Of a stretch of 64,000 bases of DNA, positions 22,500 through 47,178 are shown piece by piece. How positions within the stretch are numbered: position 1 is the stretch's first letter; each line of letters begins with the position of its first letter. Under the pieces are notes generated by a model, which ran no database searches, was not told the origin of the DNA, and saw nothing but the letters and a program-made list of their open reading frames with translations. The DNA is from Eledone cirrhosa (lineage: Eukaryota), in the NCBI GenBank assembly GCA_964016885.1, contig OZ024744.1:65658001-65722000 (forward strand), written 5' to 3'. The translations under genes were made by a program, and so were the position numbers.

Positions 22500-22850
22500 T
22501 GTAGTATTGGTGCCACAACAATATGCACCCAGTTCACTCTGTAAAGTAGTAGTGCTTGTGCCACAACAAAAAGCACCCAGTCTGCACTGGAAGGTGGTAG
22601 TGCTTGTGCCACTACAAAAAGCACCCAGTCTGCACTGGAAGGTGGTAGTGCTTGTGCCACTACAAAAAGCACCCAGTCTGCACTGGAAGGTGGTAGTGCT
22701 GGTACCATGATGAAAAAGCACCCAGTACACACTGTAAGGTGGTAGTGTTAGTACAACAAATAGCACCCAGTACAGTATGTAAGGTGGAAGTGCAGAGTCA
22801 CGATAAAATGCTCATGGTATATGCTGTAATGTGGTTGGTGTGATGAATGG
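22500..22850 (+). repeat. Tandem 48-bp modules (~7 copies) from the RTE/SINE tail
   Basis: GCACCCAG at 22573, 22621 and 22669 (period 48); 16-aa repeats in the ORF track. Confidence 0.85.
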
Positions 22851-23114: not shown

Positions 23115-24020
23115 TATGAACAATTACATAATGGTATCTGCCAATGAAATGTGCATAATAGCAATTACATAATTGATAAAAGGATATAAGATTCCAGAAT
23201 ACTGCTTCATTTTTCATTCTTATACAAAAACTCTGTCATATATAAACATTCGTGACTATATCACAGTCAGGAAACTATACTTTGTTAAGTGCTAAAACCT
23301 GTGTACACAAGTATTAATTGATCGACAAGTACAATTGTGAAACAATTACTGATTAACAAACATGAACAGACCATATATATATATATATAATTTTTTTTTC
23401 TCCAAAATGGCTGACTGAATACACATATTTTTCTATTCTTTCCTCTTTTCACTCTCTATCTATCTATTGGGTTGAAGGACTAGTGCCCGAAAGGTTAAGA
23501 CTCTTTTCCAACTATATTGTGTTAAACTAATATATTGTACTGTGTTGTTTCCTTTGTTATTTCTGTTTACTTTTATGCACCGAATTCCCATGGGCACAGG
23601 CTGTACTTGAAGCATATATATAGCATGCACCACCCTACCTACTCCCATACATCTCCCATGAGAACAAGGTGAAGGTACATCCAGTGAAGCTGCCTGCCCA
23701 CACTGTAAAGTGGTTGTGTAGGTGACACAACAAAACCGCCCAGCCCATACTGTTAAGTGGTCATGTAGGTTTCATGGCAAAAAGCACCCAGTCCACACTG
23801 TAAAGTAGTCTTGTGGGCATCATAACAAAAAAGCACCCAGTATTCACTGTAAATGAGGTTGGCATTAGGAAGAGCATCCAACTGTATAAACCAAACCAGA
23901 AGCAGTTCTGTATGAGCTAGGCATGGTCACCTGACCTGGCATTTTTCACAACAGAACACCTCATCTAACCCATGCTAGTGGGGGAAAAATGGACATTAAA
24001 CGGTGATGATGATGATATAT

Positions 24021-24324
24021 ATATCACAGAAAAAAAGAGAATCAGTGTTGCGACGAATGGAATTTATTGGACATATTACAATCGTTTCTCTGGCGACCAG
24101 CTCGAGGCACGATCGATGTGATGATCAAACCTGACTTTGAAAATCGCAAGGTCCTCAGATATGTCTTGATTCTACGAAGCAGATTTTCCTATGTCCTTTT
24201 ACATCGATATCCTTCGCCTGTTGGCTTAGATCCTGTTGTTGTCATTCTATGAGTGGTCAAGAATTGTACACGTCATCGATATTTCTAGCCACTCATGGTT
24301 GTCCACTATTTGGTTCTTTTCATT
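24021..24324 (-). repeat. 3' pseudo-LTR (left arm of the ~305-bp inverted repeat)
   Basis: Reverse complement of 28466-28770 with few differences; both give the near-identical peptide DILQSFLWRPARGTIDVM in the ORF track. Confidence 0.92.
24070..24165 (-). ncRNA. Type I hammerhead ribozyme motif, copy 1
   Basis: Minus strand: GACAUAU-CUGAGGA-[63-nt stem II region]-GAAAC-GAUU-GUA-AUAUGUC. Stem I is a perfect 7-bp GACAUAU/AUAUGUC; GUA cleavage triplet. Confidence 0.7.
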
Positions 24325-24938
24325 AGCATAACGTTTCAAGAACACAGCCTCAGAATACCTTAACACATACATATTTCAAAAAGAAAAAAATTATGTACAA
24401 AGAACTTTTTTAAATGAATGCTTGGAATAGCCTTTCAAAAAAAATTATTTCGAAGGTATTTTTTATAAATATACACATATCTATACTCACACACTGTACT
24501 CAGGGAAGTGTGTATAATAAAGACGCTGCACATATATACACAGATGAAAAAAAGAAAGATCTACACATAAGCATTCATACCCTCACACAGACATGTTCAT
24601 ACAAATACATCCACCAAGACATGTGCACACACGTGCACATGCATATCTGCATGGACGCACATACATACATGTACCCGCGTATGTTCATATCGAGGGCGCA
24701 TACTTGATGAATACCCTCCCATCCGGACACACATGCGCAGCTGTGCACATGGTGCACATAGTATTATATGAGACAACGTTCTTGAGGCTTGGACCCAACC
24801 CAGTCATGTGGCGATATAAGCCCGAAAGTGCATGCACAATATGCATAAATGTTATAGCTGCATAGCATCCTTGCACTAATCACATATAACTTGGGTGGCA
24901 CATATATATATCTATAAATATATATATATATTTATATA

Positions 24939-25333
24939 TACCTAAGTGCAAAGTGAAACCTACTACAGTCAGTAGGCACCTTTAACAAAATACACCCCCG
25001 TCCCACAACCCCCACCCCATCCATACCACCCCTTTCAATGTAAAGTTATGTTGGTACCACAACATCCAGCCCGAAACAAACGAGGTCGTGTAGGTGTCAC
25101 AACAAAAAAACACACAGTCCACGCTGTAATGTGGTCGTGTAGGTAACACGGTAAAAACCTCTCAGTTCACACTGTAAACGTGGTTGGTGCTAGGAAGGGC
25201 ATCCAGCCGTAGAAAACCCGCCAGACAGTCCTATGCGAGCAAGACAACCACTCTTGCTTCAAGTGGGAAAACTCCCGTCCAAACCCATGCGAGCGTGGAA
25301 TATGGACGTTAAACGATGATTATGATGATGATA
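24939..25333 (+). mobile_element. RTE 3' UTR/tail fragment inserted in the PLE 3' region
   Basis: Matches the 3' UTR of 41277-41325 (AACCTACTACAGTCAGTAGGCA) and ends GACGTTAAAC(GAT)n; preceded by (TA)n. Confidence 0.85.
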
Positions 25334-25650
25334 TATATATATATATATAAAATGCCTGTATGTACATAAAATAAAATAATATAAAATAATATAATATAAA
25401 ATAAAATAAAATGCTGGAAAAAGGAATGTACACATGACAATGATGCAGAGGGGACGGACATTATTGGGGTGTGCGTAAAGTTGCATAAAATACTTGAGGG
25501 CTGTGGTGCATATGGTTATATAATATACATGGGGACTGGTGATCTAAATTACTGGGTAAGATTCTGCACATGATGCAGGTCTCATGGCTGGTGGACACAT
25601 GGGGACCTTGTGTGCGTACACAAACAAGTTATGTATATTGTGGATGTTTA

Positions 25651-26316
25651 TATCATCATCATCATCAGGTTTAGCGTCCGTGTTCCACGCTTGCATGGGT
25701 TTGGACGGGGGTTTTCCCACTTGAGGCAAGAGTGGTTGTCTTGCTCGCATAGGACTGTCTGGCGGGTTTTCTACAGCTGGATGCCCTTCCTAACACCAAC
25801 CACATTTACAGTGTGGGGCTGGGAGGTTTTTACCGTGTTACCTACACAGCCACATTACAGCGTGGACTGTGTGTTTTTTTGTCGTGACACCTACACGATC
25901 TCATTTGTTTCGGCCTGGATGTTGTGGGACCAACATAACTTTACATTGAAAGGGGCGGTGTGGATGGGGTGGAGGTGGTGGGACGGGGGTGTGTTTTGAT
26001 AGAGATGCCTACTGACTGTAGTAGGTTTTACTTTGTATTTAGGTAAGGCGGGTCTTCTCTATTACTGAGTACCGCCAAAGGTCTCGGTCCAGTGACATTG
26101 TCTTGGAGAGGTGTAAGCGTGTGAGGTCGGAATTTATCATGTCGTCCCAGGTTTTTCTGGGTCTGCCTACTCCGTGGCTACCGTCTATCTTTATTGCCCC
26201 GCACTTTGTTATACAGCTGTCGTCTTTCATGCGCATCATGTGACCGTACCAACGTAGCCTTCTCTCGAGTAAATAACATCTGATCCCTCTTATTTCTAAT
26301 TTTTTTCCTTAGTTCG
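25651..26316 (-). mobile_element. 5'-truncated young RTE LINE (ORF2 end plus 3' UTR) nested in the PLE
   Basis: MMRMKDDSCITKCGAIKIDGSHGVGRPRKTWDD...EKTRLT is nearly identical to the end of ORF 40704-41279. Confidence 0.9.
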
Positions 26317-26819
26317 AACATCCATTTCATAATAGTATATATGAGAAGTACATGTAGTGGATGTATACATGGAATATATAGGGTGTGTGTTTCATAGTAG
26401 TATATATGAAATGTACGTGGAATGTATGCATGATTGGAATGTGCTTGTGTTGTAGGCGTGTATATATCAACGGCAGGCAAAGTTAAAATTAACTGTGACA
26501 TTAACCTTAAGACCAGCATCAGGTCCGGCATCTAAGTCGCAAATTAAACACCACGAATCGAAGATTGAAAATCAAAAATGGGAAATTAAAAAATTTGGAA
26601 ATTTAAAACCACACATAGGGTTGTAGACCAAATCAGACTTATATTGAGTCGGCGTCAGCAAAATGGTGTGGTGGTGCTATCCAAGGTGCGTTACGAGGTA
26701 GACATCGCTGGGTTTGTCGTTGATATCAGCTTGTTCTGACATGCATTCATAAGTATGCTGTGTCATATATCGTGGTCTGCTGCATGCGCCCCACTTGGTA
26801 TTGTGATGGCGGTAGTGCC

Positions 26820-28308
26820 TTAGGTAGACCCATCCGGTATCACTAAAGTGGAGAGCGTGCATTTACGTTGGTGTCTGCAGACCATGATAATTTCAGATTT
26901 GAGGTTGACTGCGTCGTCCTTAAGTTTTACTATCTCATAGCCTCGGACAGGCATAACTTGCACTTCCTCTCTCCAGCCGAGTATGAATTCGCACACTGTA
27001 GGTCAAACTCTATGCCACTGTCTTTTAGTCCCCATACTACGTCTGCCAGTCTGGTGGAGTGTCTCTTGTTCCTGTCCTTGAACAAGTTCTTGTGGTTGTA
27101 CATCCTCGATTTAAAAGTTGTGGATGTAGCTCCGATGTATGTGTGCCTATCATTGTGCGTGGTAACCACACATCTCTAGACAATGCCCTTAGTCAGGCAC
27201 ATTCCCTGCAGAGGGCACTCCTCTCCAACACGGCAGTTACAGGTCTGTGTATCATTATTGTAATTCCCCTTATTTGGGCCTGACGTCTTATTTGGGTTCT
27301 CCCTGGTCCTCAAGTGGTGCTCTGACAGAATGGTGGACTCGGTGTTCACCACCAGCTGGTCTCTGTTGTCAGGTGTGGGGTCCTCCGCGGCCACAGCTCC
27401 GTCCCCAGGCACATCTCCAGAACCACTAACCCCCTCCCACCCCACCCCACCGCCGGTGTATCAGGGGCCCTGATCGGTTTGTTGGTGGGGTGTCCTCAAT
27501 TTCAACGCGTTGGCCTTGGCCATGTAGTCTGCCATGTTGGGTGCCGTTGAAAATGAGAACTTCTCGGTGTGTCGGTTGAATATTTTGTGGTAGCTGTGTG
27601 AAGGCGGGAAACACTCGTCCAATGCCCTAAAGAAGAGACCTGGCATGTTACTGCGTACATGTTTCGAGTATGGTGCATTGAACCATGTTATGTTTCTAGG
27701 TCTGTTTCTATTTCGTTGTCTGCTACTAGTAGTGTGTGCATTGTCATGTTGTTCTCTCGGGTTACCCCTACTCCTATTTGAACCCCTATTCTATCCCTAT
27801 GCTTAGAACTATTACTTAAGTCTGTGGAAAGGCATTGACTCACTATGTTGTTCTGGACACGTTTACTAGCCCTAGTTATCGTCCCTGTCCTGCTACCCGA
27901 GTATCCTGCCGTATCATTGTTGGTATTCTTAATCTTGGTGTTATCCCTATCGTGTTCAAAGTTCTGTGCTGCATTATCTATTTCACTATCTTTGGTTTCC
28001 CCGTCCTGGTCTGTGCTGTTACTACAGTTCAGTCCGTATGTGTTGGGGTCCCTAGGGTTCTCGTGCGCCCTCATTTGTCTATGCGTCGTGCTGCCATCAC
28101 TGTCATGTGTAATACTCCTATCTATACCATTATGTGTGCGTTTACAGGTAGATTGTCTGCCTATGTTATTACTAATGGTATCCGGGTGATTGCGTTCCTC
28201 GCTATGCGGCCTGCCCTTGTCCGGGGTGTACACTATGGCTTCTGTGTAACCGGCCCTGTCCAGTGCCTCGTTGTAGTAGTCGGCGTGCTGATTGAACACA
28301 TCCACGTT
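26820..28308 (-). pseudogene. Disrupted PLE ORF: RT thumb end, linker, Cys-rich knuckle, GIY-YIG endonuclease
   Basis: ANVDVFNQHADYYNEALDRAGY...RNITWFNAPYSKHVRSN..FPPSHSYHKIFNRH..CNCRVGEECPLQGMCL..GIV*RC..TYIGATSTTFKSRMYNH..CKLCLSE/YEIVKL..NLKSEIIMVCRHQRK*. Lesions: frameshifts near 27790 and 26938, TGA 27461-63, TAG 27176-78. Confidence 0.88.
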
Positions 28309-28465
28309 GGCTGTTCCAAGCATTCATTTAAAAACGTTCTTTGTACAGAGTTTTTTCTAAACACAGTAAAGATGCCGAAGGGACGCCAGCAGTTCAAGCA
28401 TACAACCCCTTACCTACTACAGTAGTAATTCCAATCTAAGAAACAAATTTGATTGACAGGTGGAG

Positions 28466-28770
28466 AATGAAAAGAACCAAATAGTGGACAACCATGAATG
28501 GCTAGAAATATCGGTGATGTGTACAATTCTTGACCACTCATAGAATGACAACAACAGGATCTAAGTCGACAGGTGAAGGATATCGATGTAAAAGGACATA
28601 GGAAAATCTGCTTTGTAGAATCAAGATGTATCTGAGGACCTTGCGATTTTCAGAGTCAGGTTTCATCATCACATCGATCGTGCCTCGAGCTGGTCGCCAG
28701 AGAAACGATTGTAATATGTCCAATAAATTCCATTCGTCGCAACACTGATTCTCTTTTTTTTCTGTGATAT
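28466..28770 (+). repeat. Inverted pseudo-LTR copy at the truncated 5' end of the PLE
   Basis: Reverse complement of 24021-24324; AATAAA at 28722-27. Confidence 0.92.
28625..28720 (+). ncRNA. Type I hammerhead ribozyme motif, copy 2
   Basis: GATGTAT(28625)-CTGAGGA(28632-38)...GAAA(28702-05)C-GATT-GTA(28711-13)-ATATGTC(28714-20). Stem I is fully paired using two G-U wobbles. Confidence 0.68.
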
Positions 28771-28854
28771 TATACTCTGCTCTATGAGAGCATCGAGTGC
28801 TCAAACGGCCTACCGCATGGTGTTTTAAGCATCCAACACCAATTATATATATAT

Positions 28855-29428
28855 AGGTGACATAATTAGCAGCGGAGTAGGGTGCTCTGAGAGCATAATA
28901 ACTAGAAGAAGGATAAGATGGAAGAAGTTTAGAGAGCTACTCCCACTGTTGACAACAAAAAGTTTCTATCTAGTACAAAAAGATGACTGTATGACGACTG
29001 TTTACTAAGAGCGATGCTGCATGGTAGTGAAACATGGGCAATGATTGCAGGGGACATGCATAGGCTGGAGAGAAATGGAGCAACCATGATTCATTGGATA
29101 TGCAATGTAAATGAGAGAGAAGGACAGAGTCAGGATGAACTGAGGGAGAAGCTGGGTTTAAGCGGAATCAGAAGTGGTGTGCAAGAGATGATGTGCATGG
29201 ATGATGATCGCTGGGTGAAGAAGCGCCAAGAAATTCCAGTGGAAGGAAGCCGCACTAGAGGTAGACCAAGGATAACCTGGGCAGAGGTGGTGAGAGCTGA
29301 TCTCAAACAGTTGAGATTCACAGAAGAGATGATGAAGGAATGTAGCTAGTACAGAGATGCTGTGCTGAAAAAGGCCTATCCAACCCGTGTAAGCATGTAA
29401 AAATGGACGTAAAAACAATGATGATGAT
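28855..29428 (+). mobile_element. RTE LINE 3' fragment (different subfamily)
   Basis: MLHGSETWAMIAGDMHRLERN...RGRPRITWAEVV; tail GGACGTAAAAACAATGATGATGAT; preceded by (TA)n. Confidence 0.85.
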
Positions 29429-30025: not shown

Positions 30026-30908
30026 TTAATTATATATTTTCAGTTCAAATTTTGCCTGAGTTAACTTAGCTGTGTACTTTTTCCAAACTGATTGTCTGTA
30101 TCCCATTAAAAAATATGTCACCTTTTTCTGAAGTTATAAGTTTTAAGTATCTATTCACAATGTTTATATCTATACTGTGTTTCATTCCATTTAACCTCTC
30201 ATCACTATTAGGTATTTTATTCTTGAATGCATATATTGTCTCAGAATGGATATCAATTACTTAATAACATTCATTCGTACTGTAAAGTGGTCGTGTAGGC
30301 GTCATAACAAAAAGCACCCAGTACTCACTGTAAATCAGGCTGGTGCTAGGAAGGGCACCCAGCTGTAGAAACCAAGCCAAAATTAGTTCTGTATGAGCAA
30401 GACATGGTCACCTGACCTGGCATTGCTCACAACAGGGTCACTCATCTAACCCATGCCAGTGTGGAAAAGTGGACGTTAAACTGTGATGATGATGATTTCT
30501 GCTAGGCCATATCTATTGCTAGATACCTATCAAATCACCTTAGAACACAGGACATATTGAAAATGTGGGTCTGGGTTCCCTTTACACTGGAAGAAGGTGG
30601 AATGGTCATGGTTGGAATGGTTCTGGTCATGGATCTGCTTAGTCAACTCTGATCTGGAGTTAAACAACAACATGGTCACTTAACCTGCTAGAAATAGCAG
30701 CCAAATCCATCTTAAATCATATATGTCCCTGTCTGAAAAATGGAAGGACACATTGCAGAGTGTATTCCTAAATATATTGTCTAAAAAAGAAAAGGTAGAA
30801 TGGTTGTGACTAGAACAACTTTGATCGTAGATTTGCTGAATCAACGCTAACTTGAGACTAAACAACAATAATAACAAATTTCTGTCCAGCTATTATTTAT
30901 TATTAAAA

Positions 30909-46676: not shown

Positions 46677-46683
<7 letters not shown>

Positions 46684-47008
46684 TTCAAAATATTAATAAA
46701 TGAAAAATATTCTCATAACCAAAATATATATTTTATTATACATATTTCAAGGTACAATGGTGTTTGAATATGTTTTCATCAGATAAAATATATGATAGAT
46801 TGGATATGCAACATACCGCTAAGGTTTTGATTATTCAATAGAGGAATTGAATATTCAAAACCTTAGCGGTATGTCGCATATCCAATCTCTTATATATTTT
46901 ATCTGATGAAAACGTACTGAAACACCATTGTACCTTGAAATATGTATAATAAAATATATATTTTGGTTATGAAAATAATTTTCATTTATTAATATTTTGA
47001 ATAATATT
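46677..47008. repeat. Near-perfect palindrome: ~163-bp arms with a 6-nt loop (AGAGGA)
   Basis: 46677-46839 is the reverse complement of 46846-47008 (e.g. CATACCGCTAAGGTTTTGA / TCAAAACCTTAGCGGTATG). Confidence 0.95.
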
Positions 47009-47178
47009 CAATATTCTAGATAAATTCCTGTCGAGTACTTCTAATCTATTGTAAAATTGAATTTGTTGAATAATCAACGAACCATGTATATATATATATA
47101 AATTCTTGCATCATACTACTGTACAACACACACACACACTCAATTTGATATTCATCATAGTTTTCTTCAGGTTCAGTG

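Follow-up and report, generated by a model that had tools for sequence, protein, structure and literature searches.

A 64-kb stretch of the Eledone cirrhosa genome (contig OZ024744.1, positions 65,658,001 to 65,722,000; hereafter the window) contains a decayed Penelope-like element (PLE) with inverted pseudo-long terminal repeats (pLTRs), each of which carries a type I hammerhead motif with a 63-nt spacer in the place of stem II. As judged from alignments of sister subfamilies, this long stem II arm appears to be a conserved structure. Dimeric hammerheads in the pLTRs of PLEs are known; what appears to be new is the conserved stem II arm, which reaches 61-126 nt in this genome.

Repeat pairs, a blastn comparison, a descriptor scan and an Rfam scan were all run on the window. 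The inverted repeat (24030-24324 and 28466-28760) is 295 nt long and 96% complementary, and blastn lengthens it to 310 nt at 95.8% identity, in agreement with the roughly 305 bp of the initial annotation. Both copies contain, in the order described there, a 7-bp stem I, CUGAGGA, the 63-nt spacer, GAAAC, a 4-nt loop, GUA, stem I' and AATAAA; that is, CUGANGA, GAAA and NUH are all present in order among three helices. In both copies the spacer begins with C and ends with A, giving C10.1 opposite A11.1. A relaxed descriptor found four matches in the window, compared with 0.1 per shuffled 64 kb (20 doublet-block shuffles), and two of the four belong to a short-armed pair near 46.8 kb. Our model R1 scores 115 bits on copy 1 and 111.6 bits on copy 2, which are matches by construction. 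No hammerhead family was among the 17 Rfam matches to the window up to E 10, as expected from the earlier suggestion that a long stem II escapes Rfam and short-spacer descriptors. The stem I differences between the two copies had been read as G-U wobbles that preserve pairing. In the majority of 34 aligned copies, stem I contains a CpG, and each window copy shows one decay of it (CA in copy 1, TG in copy 2). Because each difference is a single CpG decay, these differences carry no sign of selection.

Folding of the spacer as a single sequence was no better than folding of shuffles, with z-scores of -0.88 and -1.60. Within subfamily A1, changed positions numbered 8/476 in the core, 9/612 in the flank and 25/1,727 in the arm outside CpG. 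Copies inside one subfamily decay neutrally, and conservation within a subfamily is uninformative. Since neither of these approaches was informative, relatives were gathered by way of the endonuclease (EN) and compared between subfamilies. Forty of 150 scored endonuclease matches were taken, each with 4.4 kb downstream, and were chosen by protein only. At 26 of these 40 loci (64-74% amino acid identity), a long motif match in the sense orientation was found 1.2-4.0 kb past the endonuclease. Eight sister subfamilies of 9-34 copies each keep a 61-63-nt arm; for their comparison, 176 of the 181 extracted sequences were long enough to retain.

In a 14-row alignment, 94.6% of 350 cells were paired and 8 of 25 pairs had changed on both sides. 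None of 500 shuffles reached the covariation score of this alignment, and control structures slid along it paired 24-41%. RNAalifold recovered the same arm unaided, with changes on both sides in 7 of 19 pairs; stems I and III were not recovered by RNAalifold on the subfamily alignment. Stems I and II both have covariation support between subfamilies, within the limits of related rows. The extended imperfect hairpin proposed for the spacer, on which single-sequence folding had been silent, is supported by this covariation and by RNAalifold, and the compensatory changes that the initial annotation had asked for in stems I and II were found in the same alignment. The conservation check proposed with them gave a null result among copies of one family, owing to neutral decay, and a signal between subfamilies.

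On the tree of the subfamilies most compensations are single events, the exception being pair 10.3-11.3, which occurs as U-A, U-G, C-G and G-C. Divergence between the subfamilies reaches about 0.45 changes per site on the terminal branches, while the arm stays 61-63 nt long. Over the eight subfamily majorities, four of the seven positions of the 5' core (C3, G5, G8, A9), all eight positions of GAAAC and GUA, and 29 of the 63 arm positions are invariant. The unpaired positions of an internal-loop module in the arm are also invariant over subfamilies.

The core itself varies between subfamilies. It is canonical in A1, B and F, has U4C in A2, A3 and C, has both U4C and A6U in D, and has an extra A after A6 (A6a) in E. 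Twelve of 15 core positions are kept, and C3, G5, G8, A9, G12-A14, 15.1, 16.1 and A17 never changed over the eight subfamilies. Position 10.1·11.1 is C·A in the window and A·A, A·G, A·C or U·U (the last in F) in the sister subfamilies. The G10.1-C11.1 closing pair is therefore lacking, although it is not required, a natural U·U being known. The C·A opposition had been regarded as unusual. By our own count, U·U occupies this position in 14 of 25 published Hydra families (PMC8557442, File S2), and a mismatch here appears to be a trait of the Hydra clade rather than new in kind. A GUC cleavage site in locus L110 was considered as a family trait and rejected, as it results from a private insertion. 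We also rejected a switch in which UCAG of the arm sequesters CUGA of the core; it occurs in the minimum-energy folds, yet UCAG is unchanged in the U4C subfamilies.

Stem III and its loop are self-complementary in all subfamilies, most weakly in E; across three sequence variants the energies are -5.8 to -7.0 kcal/mol. An unstable 2-bp stem III with a self-complementary loop is the arrangement of a double hammerhead, and it is found here, less strongly in subfamily E. For 8 of the 11 sequences tested, the double hammerhead is lower in energy than a pair of monomers in their minimum folds.

By its motif hallmarks, the element itself appears to be a decayed, 5'-truncated member of the Hydra clade of PLEs. 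The initial annotation was right in calling it Penelope-like and missed its clade, its tail and the longer-armed families of the genome; the end that it had placed at 28770 lies at about 28843, which the insertion reaches through the tail. The hallmarks of the Hydra clade are a CxCX5C linker, the lack of CCHH, RWK, a change of DKG to DKT, and (TA)n targets (Craig et al. 2021, PMC8557442). The linker precedes the EN in window frame 27176-27460. The EN lacks CCHH and has CxxC, ahead of the conserved E, and CxH around the conserved E and N, and the element is inserted into (TA)n. The N-terminal region of the reverse transcriptase (RT) is missing from the truncated window copy; in family locus L246 this part has RWR and DKT, and in Hydra-1_Obim RWK and DKT. 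The GIY-YIG remnant reported on the minus strand corresponds to frame 26933-27175, whose Pfam match is weak (E 0.001; 19.8 bits, under the 22.6 cut-off), and the open reading frame (ORF) around it is broken by several stops and frame changes.

The window contains an RT thumb end, the linker and the EN, and RT regions upstream of the endonuclease are seen in family loci L233, L244 and L246, as expected of EN+ PLEs with a C-terminal GIY-YIG after the RT. This C-terminal position differs from that in Naiad and Chlamys elements, in which the EN is N-terminal. Non-LTR retrozymes are short non-coding tandem repeats, each with a hammerhead (bioRxiv 10.64898/2026.07.22.740005), whereas the motif described here lies downstream of an RT-EN ORF. 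Family copies exceed 4 kb through ORF inserts and a 1.5-kb 3' untranslated region (UTR), unlike Hydra-clade elements generally, which are under 3 kb; short length is a descriptive trait of the clade and not a diagnostic motif (PMC8557442). The ORF inserts are long, fast-evolving and of low complexity (27691-28230 and 27260-27560), lie between thumb, linker and EN, and are missing from other Hydra-type elements in the genome.

PLE insertions have been described with an inverted 5'-truncated copy and a tail of 30-40 bp at one end (PMC8557442). The window fits this scheme in its pLTRs, its inverted 5'-truncated copy and its one-sided tail, which exceeds the published length. The tail is found on 9 of 23 distinct family ends, 8 of these 9 ending at the identical point, and most untailed ends stop at the short end, like copy 1. 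Relative to locus L008, copy 1 has about 240 bp deleted at 24323/24324. [quoted passage not shown] Since the window copies are inverted rather than tandem, no single transcript would hold both of their hammerheads in sense. Read-through RNA would pair the copies over 295 bp, and the locus is therefore most likely an inert fossil.

Past stem I', the subfamily majorities have AATAAA in seven cases and ATTAAA in the eighth, which is a possible poly(A) signal. In the window (28728-28768) and in the subfamily majorities this is followed by an invariant CACTGATT and then a U-rich run, which could be a poly(A) site or a signal for the start of reverse transcription. Upstream of the hammerhead, the TGACGT of copy 1 has decayed to TGATGT at 28515 in copy 2; TGACGT is a candidate cAMP response element (CRE)-like promoter element. 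The features of the insertion are collected in Table 1.

Table 1. Features of the PLE insertion, in positions of the window
Feature	Position	Strand	Remarks
Whole insertion	24021-28843	both	5'-truncated Hydra-clade PLE on minus (as judged by motifs), inverted end copy on plus; (TA)n at both ends
pLTR copy 1	24021-24324	-	3' pLTR, same sense as the ORF; ends at short family end
AATAAA past stem I' of copy 1	24063-24068	-	
Hammerhead motif copy 1	24070-24165	-	stem I 24165-24159, core 24158-24152, spacer 24151-24089
Copy 1, 3' part		-	GAAAC 24088-24084, GUA 24079-24077, stem I' 24076-24070; with AATAAA, motif 24165-24063
Predicted cut, copy 1	24077/24076	-	
TGACGT	24270-24275	-	upstream of copy-1 hammerhead; in majorities A1-A3, B, C, D
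3' UTR	24325-26929	-	about 1.5 kb in family copies; here broken by two later insertions
Later insertion 1	24911-25336	+	without counterpart in family copies; 3' end of another repeat
Later insertion 2	25656-26316	-	without counterpart in family copies; 3' end of a long interspersed nuclear element (LINE), coding remnant 26039-26308
ORF remnant	26930-28308	-	RT thumb end, low-complexity spacer, WFN linker region, CxCX5C linker, GIY-YIG endonuclease
Start of inverted copy	28309-28356	+	48 nt of 3' UTR matching 24385-24432; then about 175-bp deletion relative to L008
pLTR copy 2	28357-28768	+	inverted relative to the ORF
Hammerhead motif copy 2	28625-28720	+	stem I 28625-28631, CUGAGGA 28632-28638
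Stem II arm	28639-28701	+	C·A mismatch, 2 bp, U·C mismatch, 4-5 bp, invariant internal-loop module
Stem II arm apex	within 28639-28701	+	GAUC/GAUC terminal hairpin, A/C-rich loop
Copy 2, 3' part		+	GAAAC 28702-28706, loop 28707-28710, GUA 28711-28713, stem I' 28714-28720, AATAAA 28722-28727
Stem III/loop III octamer	28705-28712	+	self-complementary; monomer 2 bp, +2.4 kcal/mol; dimer 8 bp, -5.8 kcal/mol
Predicted cut, copy 2	28713/28714	+	
PLE tail	28769-28843	+	copy 2 only; about 75 nt

Long arms are not confined to the family of the window. A pattern for the 3' half of the window-type motif has 8,770 exact matches genome-wide (1 in the control), and 19 of the first 30 loci matching it have a recognizable 5' core at 61-63 nt. 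The 3' half of a second lineage has 13,472 exact matches (0 in the control), a count that comes from the pattern search, a DNA search with this 116-nt family having been empty. There are thus at least 22,000 motif 3' halves in the two long-armed groups. In 27 of the first 30 loci, the core of the second lineage is of the canonical type and its spacer, mostly with C·A, measures 99-126 nt, the length varying through short duplications; this lineage shares with the window family a basal pattern of mismatch, 2 bp and mismatch, and it has Hydra-type ENs in L269 and L271. The family (L267-L296, L148, L223, L109, L086) is very abundant; many of its copies are nearly identical, and its stem II is AU-rich.

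A third family has a branched 95-nt spacer in 14 of 20 copies and G10.1-C11.1 in the majority, and is tied to a Hydra-type EN by one locus, L234. The basal helix of this family (L234:6106, L332-L351) is 9 bp long, and its stem III palindrome is perfect. A further family with a 49-51-nt spacer and C·A at 10.1·11.1 has a CCHH-type EN upstream in one locus, L254. Its members (L181:475, L150, L247-L266, L052, L073) often occur as several copies per 3 kb at a spacing of about 560 nt, and are possibly retrozyme-like tandems. The descriptor, applied to the loci collected by that stage and to the window, found 106 distinct motifs with spacers of 11-116 nt.

We consider it somewhat probable, on balance, that the pLTR hammerheads of the ancestor cut the RNA of the element after GUA when paired as a double hammerhead, probably with the help of a protein. 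The observations behind this reading are the anatomy, the clade hallmarks, the covariation of arm and stem I, the core invariance, the stem III palindrome and the copy numbers. A promoter in the upstream pLTR would produce RNA with two hammerheads in tandem, whose stem III octamers would pair into 8 bp, and both sites would then be cut slowly. PLE hammerheads with a short stem III require dimers (PMC4209133, PMC6765202), and on this model two pLTR hammerheads on RNA of more than unit length would pair via stem III and cut slowly. The arm would be directed away from the core, leaving its length free, and its invariant internal-loop module is a putative binding site for the RT-endonuclease protein, which would steer folding. 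Reverse transcription would use uncut or re-ligated RNA as its template and begin at either of two sites, lying about 55 and 130 nt beyond the cut, to give the short end and the tailed end. Since the two 3' ends of the family are both located beyond the cut site, and the junction is preserved in complete copies, the template was presumably uncut there or re-ligated. PAc, a Poseidon element from the green anole, has a hammerhead that requires the element's protein for cleavage and a tail bounded by two RT start sites (PMC11167929).

A number of points weigh against this reading. The 14 rows of the alignment are related and represent few independent events, two of them being the window copies; the arm structure was derived from the same aligned sequences, and a private insertion puts row s11 out of alignment at stem III. 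The 47 nt downstream of the motif are about as invariant (21/47) as the arm, so that a general 3'-end signal may account for some of the conservation; the count upstream (4/40) is lowered by undetermined positions in subfamily E. Model R1 gave no score on the arms of other lineages, and the three long-armed lineages have no recognizable arm sequence in common. The U-turn changes (U4C, U4C with A6U, and A6a) are carried by successful subfamilies, and hammerheads with A6C and A6a have low activity (Perreault et al. 2011, PMC3088659), as do U-turn mutants (PMC9901934). The dimer helix of subfamily E contains two central U·U and reaches -2.9 kcal/mol. An alternative dimer fold is lower in energy in 10 of 11 sequences, the double hammerhead being the best dimer fold in 1 of 11. 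The hammerhead is not the predicted minimum either; in a 180-nt context, the probability is at most 0.05 for stem I and at most 0.17 for basal stem II. Lastly, hammerhead mutants had no effect on PAc insertion in vitro, in the one PLE tested (PMC11167929). That the hammerhead is a minor monomer fold fits a need for protein help, as with PAc.

Some of these points could also be explained if the hammerhead shape were kept as a folded signal for a retrotransposon protein, in template recognition or the start of reverse transcription, with self-cleavage lost or irrelevant. We regard this as unlikely but as deserving serious attention. Each of the U4C, A6U and A6a subfamilies is widely amplified (1,700-2,800 candidates per query at a first look), U4 and A6 vary more than the arm module, copies with the complete motif retain the uncut junction, and in PAc not only was insertion unaltered in the mutants but no reads begin or end at the cut site (PMC11167929). 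A mere folded signal would not readily explain why G8, G12, G5, A9, C3 and the GUA triplet are invariant over eight subfamilies, why the stem III palindrome is kept despite sequence change, or why the CUGA core is fully canonical in two other long-armed families. A viroid with U4C is also viable and infective, and U10.1·U11.1 is likewise natural (PMC3088659).

Alternatively, the ribozyme may be active and the arm a tolerated expansion by duplication or slippage, in which only the hairpin shape is selected. The range of 11-116 nt among the 106 distinct descriptor matches, the variation of the second lineage through short duplications, the unrelated arms of different lineages, and the occurrence of single copies with internal arm deletions are all consistent with this. 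We think it rather improbable, given that the length is fixed at 61-63 nt despite terminal-branch divergence of up to about 0.45 changes per site and that unpaired positions of the internal-loop module are invariant.

It is more doubtful still that the arm makes a tertiary contact to stem I or the upstream sequence, conferring activity on the monomer and making up for the weakness of stem III, for the mismatch at 10.1·11.1 and for the U-turn changes. The same basal pattern, of a C·A mismatch, 2 bp, a pyrimidine·C mismatch and then a helix, is seen in two long-armed lineages that are unrelated, near the position of helix I-II contacts in natural hammerheads (PMC4209133), and tertiary contacts have been suggested to offset core variants (PMC3088659). 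A stem III of only 2 bp with a maintained palindrome points instead to a dimer, no partner sequence was identified, and the upstream sequence is poorly conserved. Finally, the chance assembly of short motifs within a repeat, which loose spacer limits, weak spacer folding z-scores and the lack of an Rfam match might seem to favor, is very improbable because it is already contradicted by the between-subfamily covariation, the arm recovered by RNAalifold, the shuffle control (0.1 matches per shuffled window against four observed) and the subfamily invariance, and the pLTR position is the same as in all Hydra elements.

The double-hammerhead reading has clear antecedents. Published Hydra-clade hammerheads (PMC8557442, File S2, including Hydra-1_Obim) have the same type I pLTR motif, C-terminal GIY-YIG, (TA)n, short self-complementary stem III and frequent 10.1·11.1 mismatch. 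They differ in their spacers, which do not exceed 26 nt (Hydra-1_Obim has 23 nt), compared with 61-63, 95 and 99-126 nt here, and the Eledone elements have in addition C·A, A·A, A·G and A·C mismatches, U4C, A6U and A6a cores, a long 3' UTR and long low-complexity ORF inserts. Minimal PLE hammerheads (Cervera and de la Peña 2014, PMC4209133) share the pLTR location, the palindromic stem III and the dimer model, and also have a larger-than-usual helix II, of 7-8 bp in Schistosoma. They have a conserved G10.1-C11.1 and a bulged base there, in contrast to the multi-loop arm of about 19 bp in the window. PAc (Frangieh et al. 2024, PMC11167929) shares the PLE hammerhead, the one-sided tail and two RT start sites, but it belongs to the Poseidon clade and its ORF begins within stem II, the likely start codon of the present family being well past the pLTR end; protein assistance was shown for the PAc hammerhead. 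U4C, an insertion after A6, and U10.1·U11.1 have also been described among natural core variants (PMC3088659), as rare single cases rather than whole amplified subfamilies; section 8 of that paper, its figure 5 aside, names no variant that combines A6U with U4C.

A very short stem II had been taken as the norm for PLEs, which the Schistosoma helices and the spike-moss elements PLE-X1_sMoe and PLE-X1_sTam contradict. The latter, marked as deviating, have spacers of 54 and 48 nt by our own count, and differ from the Eledone family in being EN-less, related to Chlamys, targeted to 28S rDNA and shorter in the spacer (PMC8557442). The consulted parts of that paper contain no covariation analysis of these motifs. 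The core search of the same paper allowed 7-17 nt between half-cores, and eight Naiad cases at 35-50 nt were noted as 'half core'; together with the failure of Rfam to find the window motifs, these limits constitute a blind spot in searches. The spike-moss motifs and the Naiad cases are the closest long-spacer precedents in the consulted parts of that paper. Our literature search, in which figures and most supplements fell outside the scope and could hold precedents, found no description of stem II arms of 60-126 nt in PLEs.

Other hammerhead motifs and repeats were seen in the course of this work. A second inverted pair of type I hammerheads with 27-nt spacers lies at about 46680-47010 of the window (cores at 46782 on the minus and 46903 on the plus strand), beside (TA)n, and relatives of it with 27-36-nt spacers recur in many loci. 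Hammerhead-like motifs with spacers of 45-46, 53, 86 and 90 nt occur at L170:2935, L217:1042, L109:3039, L183:1277, L117:2258 and L128:2311. Copies of subfamily F occur eight times at a spacing of about 60 kb in G000:C12:17019301-17479010, suggesting a large tandem duplication. Outside the genome, the arm pattern had no matches in metagenome contigs, and no relative was found in viral contigs. A protein scan of metagenomes found five loci, and only L327 had a hammerhead-like motif downstream; in this Hydra-like element (L327:1695) the core is covariant at U3-A8, position 10.1·11.1 is U·U, and the spacer is 14 nt long. A homologue search with the 81-aa EN found none at E 1e-5, and a representative search found 5,822 relatives.

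The two later insertions in the 3' UTR are 92-94% complementary to each other and are two 5'-truncated copies of one LINE-like repeat in opposite orientations, of which locus L286 has a longer coding piece. Insertion 25656-26316 may be RTE-like; it has no Pfam match. A repeat family with internal tandem units of 47-49 nt and (GAT)n tails (22520-22840, 23684-23990 and 30264-30500) is related to the 3' end of these LINE-like pieces. A broken C-terminal remnant of a LINE-like RT (28829-29349) lies immediately to the right of the PLE.

This genome offers a natural series in which one arm occurs with canonical, U4C, U4C plus A6U, and A6a cores, all of them amplified to many copies, and which also includes unrelated arms of up to 126 nt; a comparison of their cleavage would test whether catalysis matters for retrotransposition. 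As a tentative extension of the double-hammerhead reading, the PLEs of this genome may repeatedly have turned stem II into an accessory domain that binds protein and gates or rescues cleavage, so that cores which would normally be crippled (U4C plus A6U, A6a, or C·A at 10.1·11.1) still work. This would apply to arms of 61-63, 95 and 99-126 nt in three Hydra-type lineages and of 45-53 nt in others. If it were true, current searches would overlook tens of thousands of protein-gated, long-armed ribozymes, and some of the PLE groups in which no hammerhead has been reported may simply have long arms.

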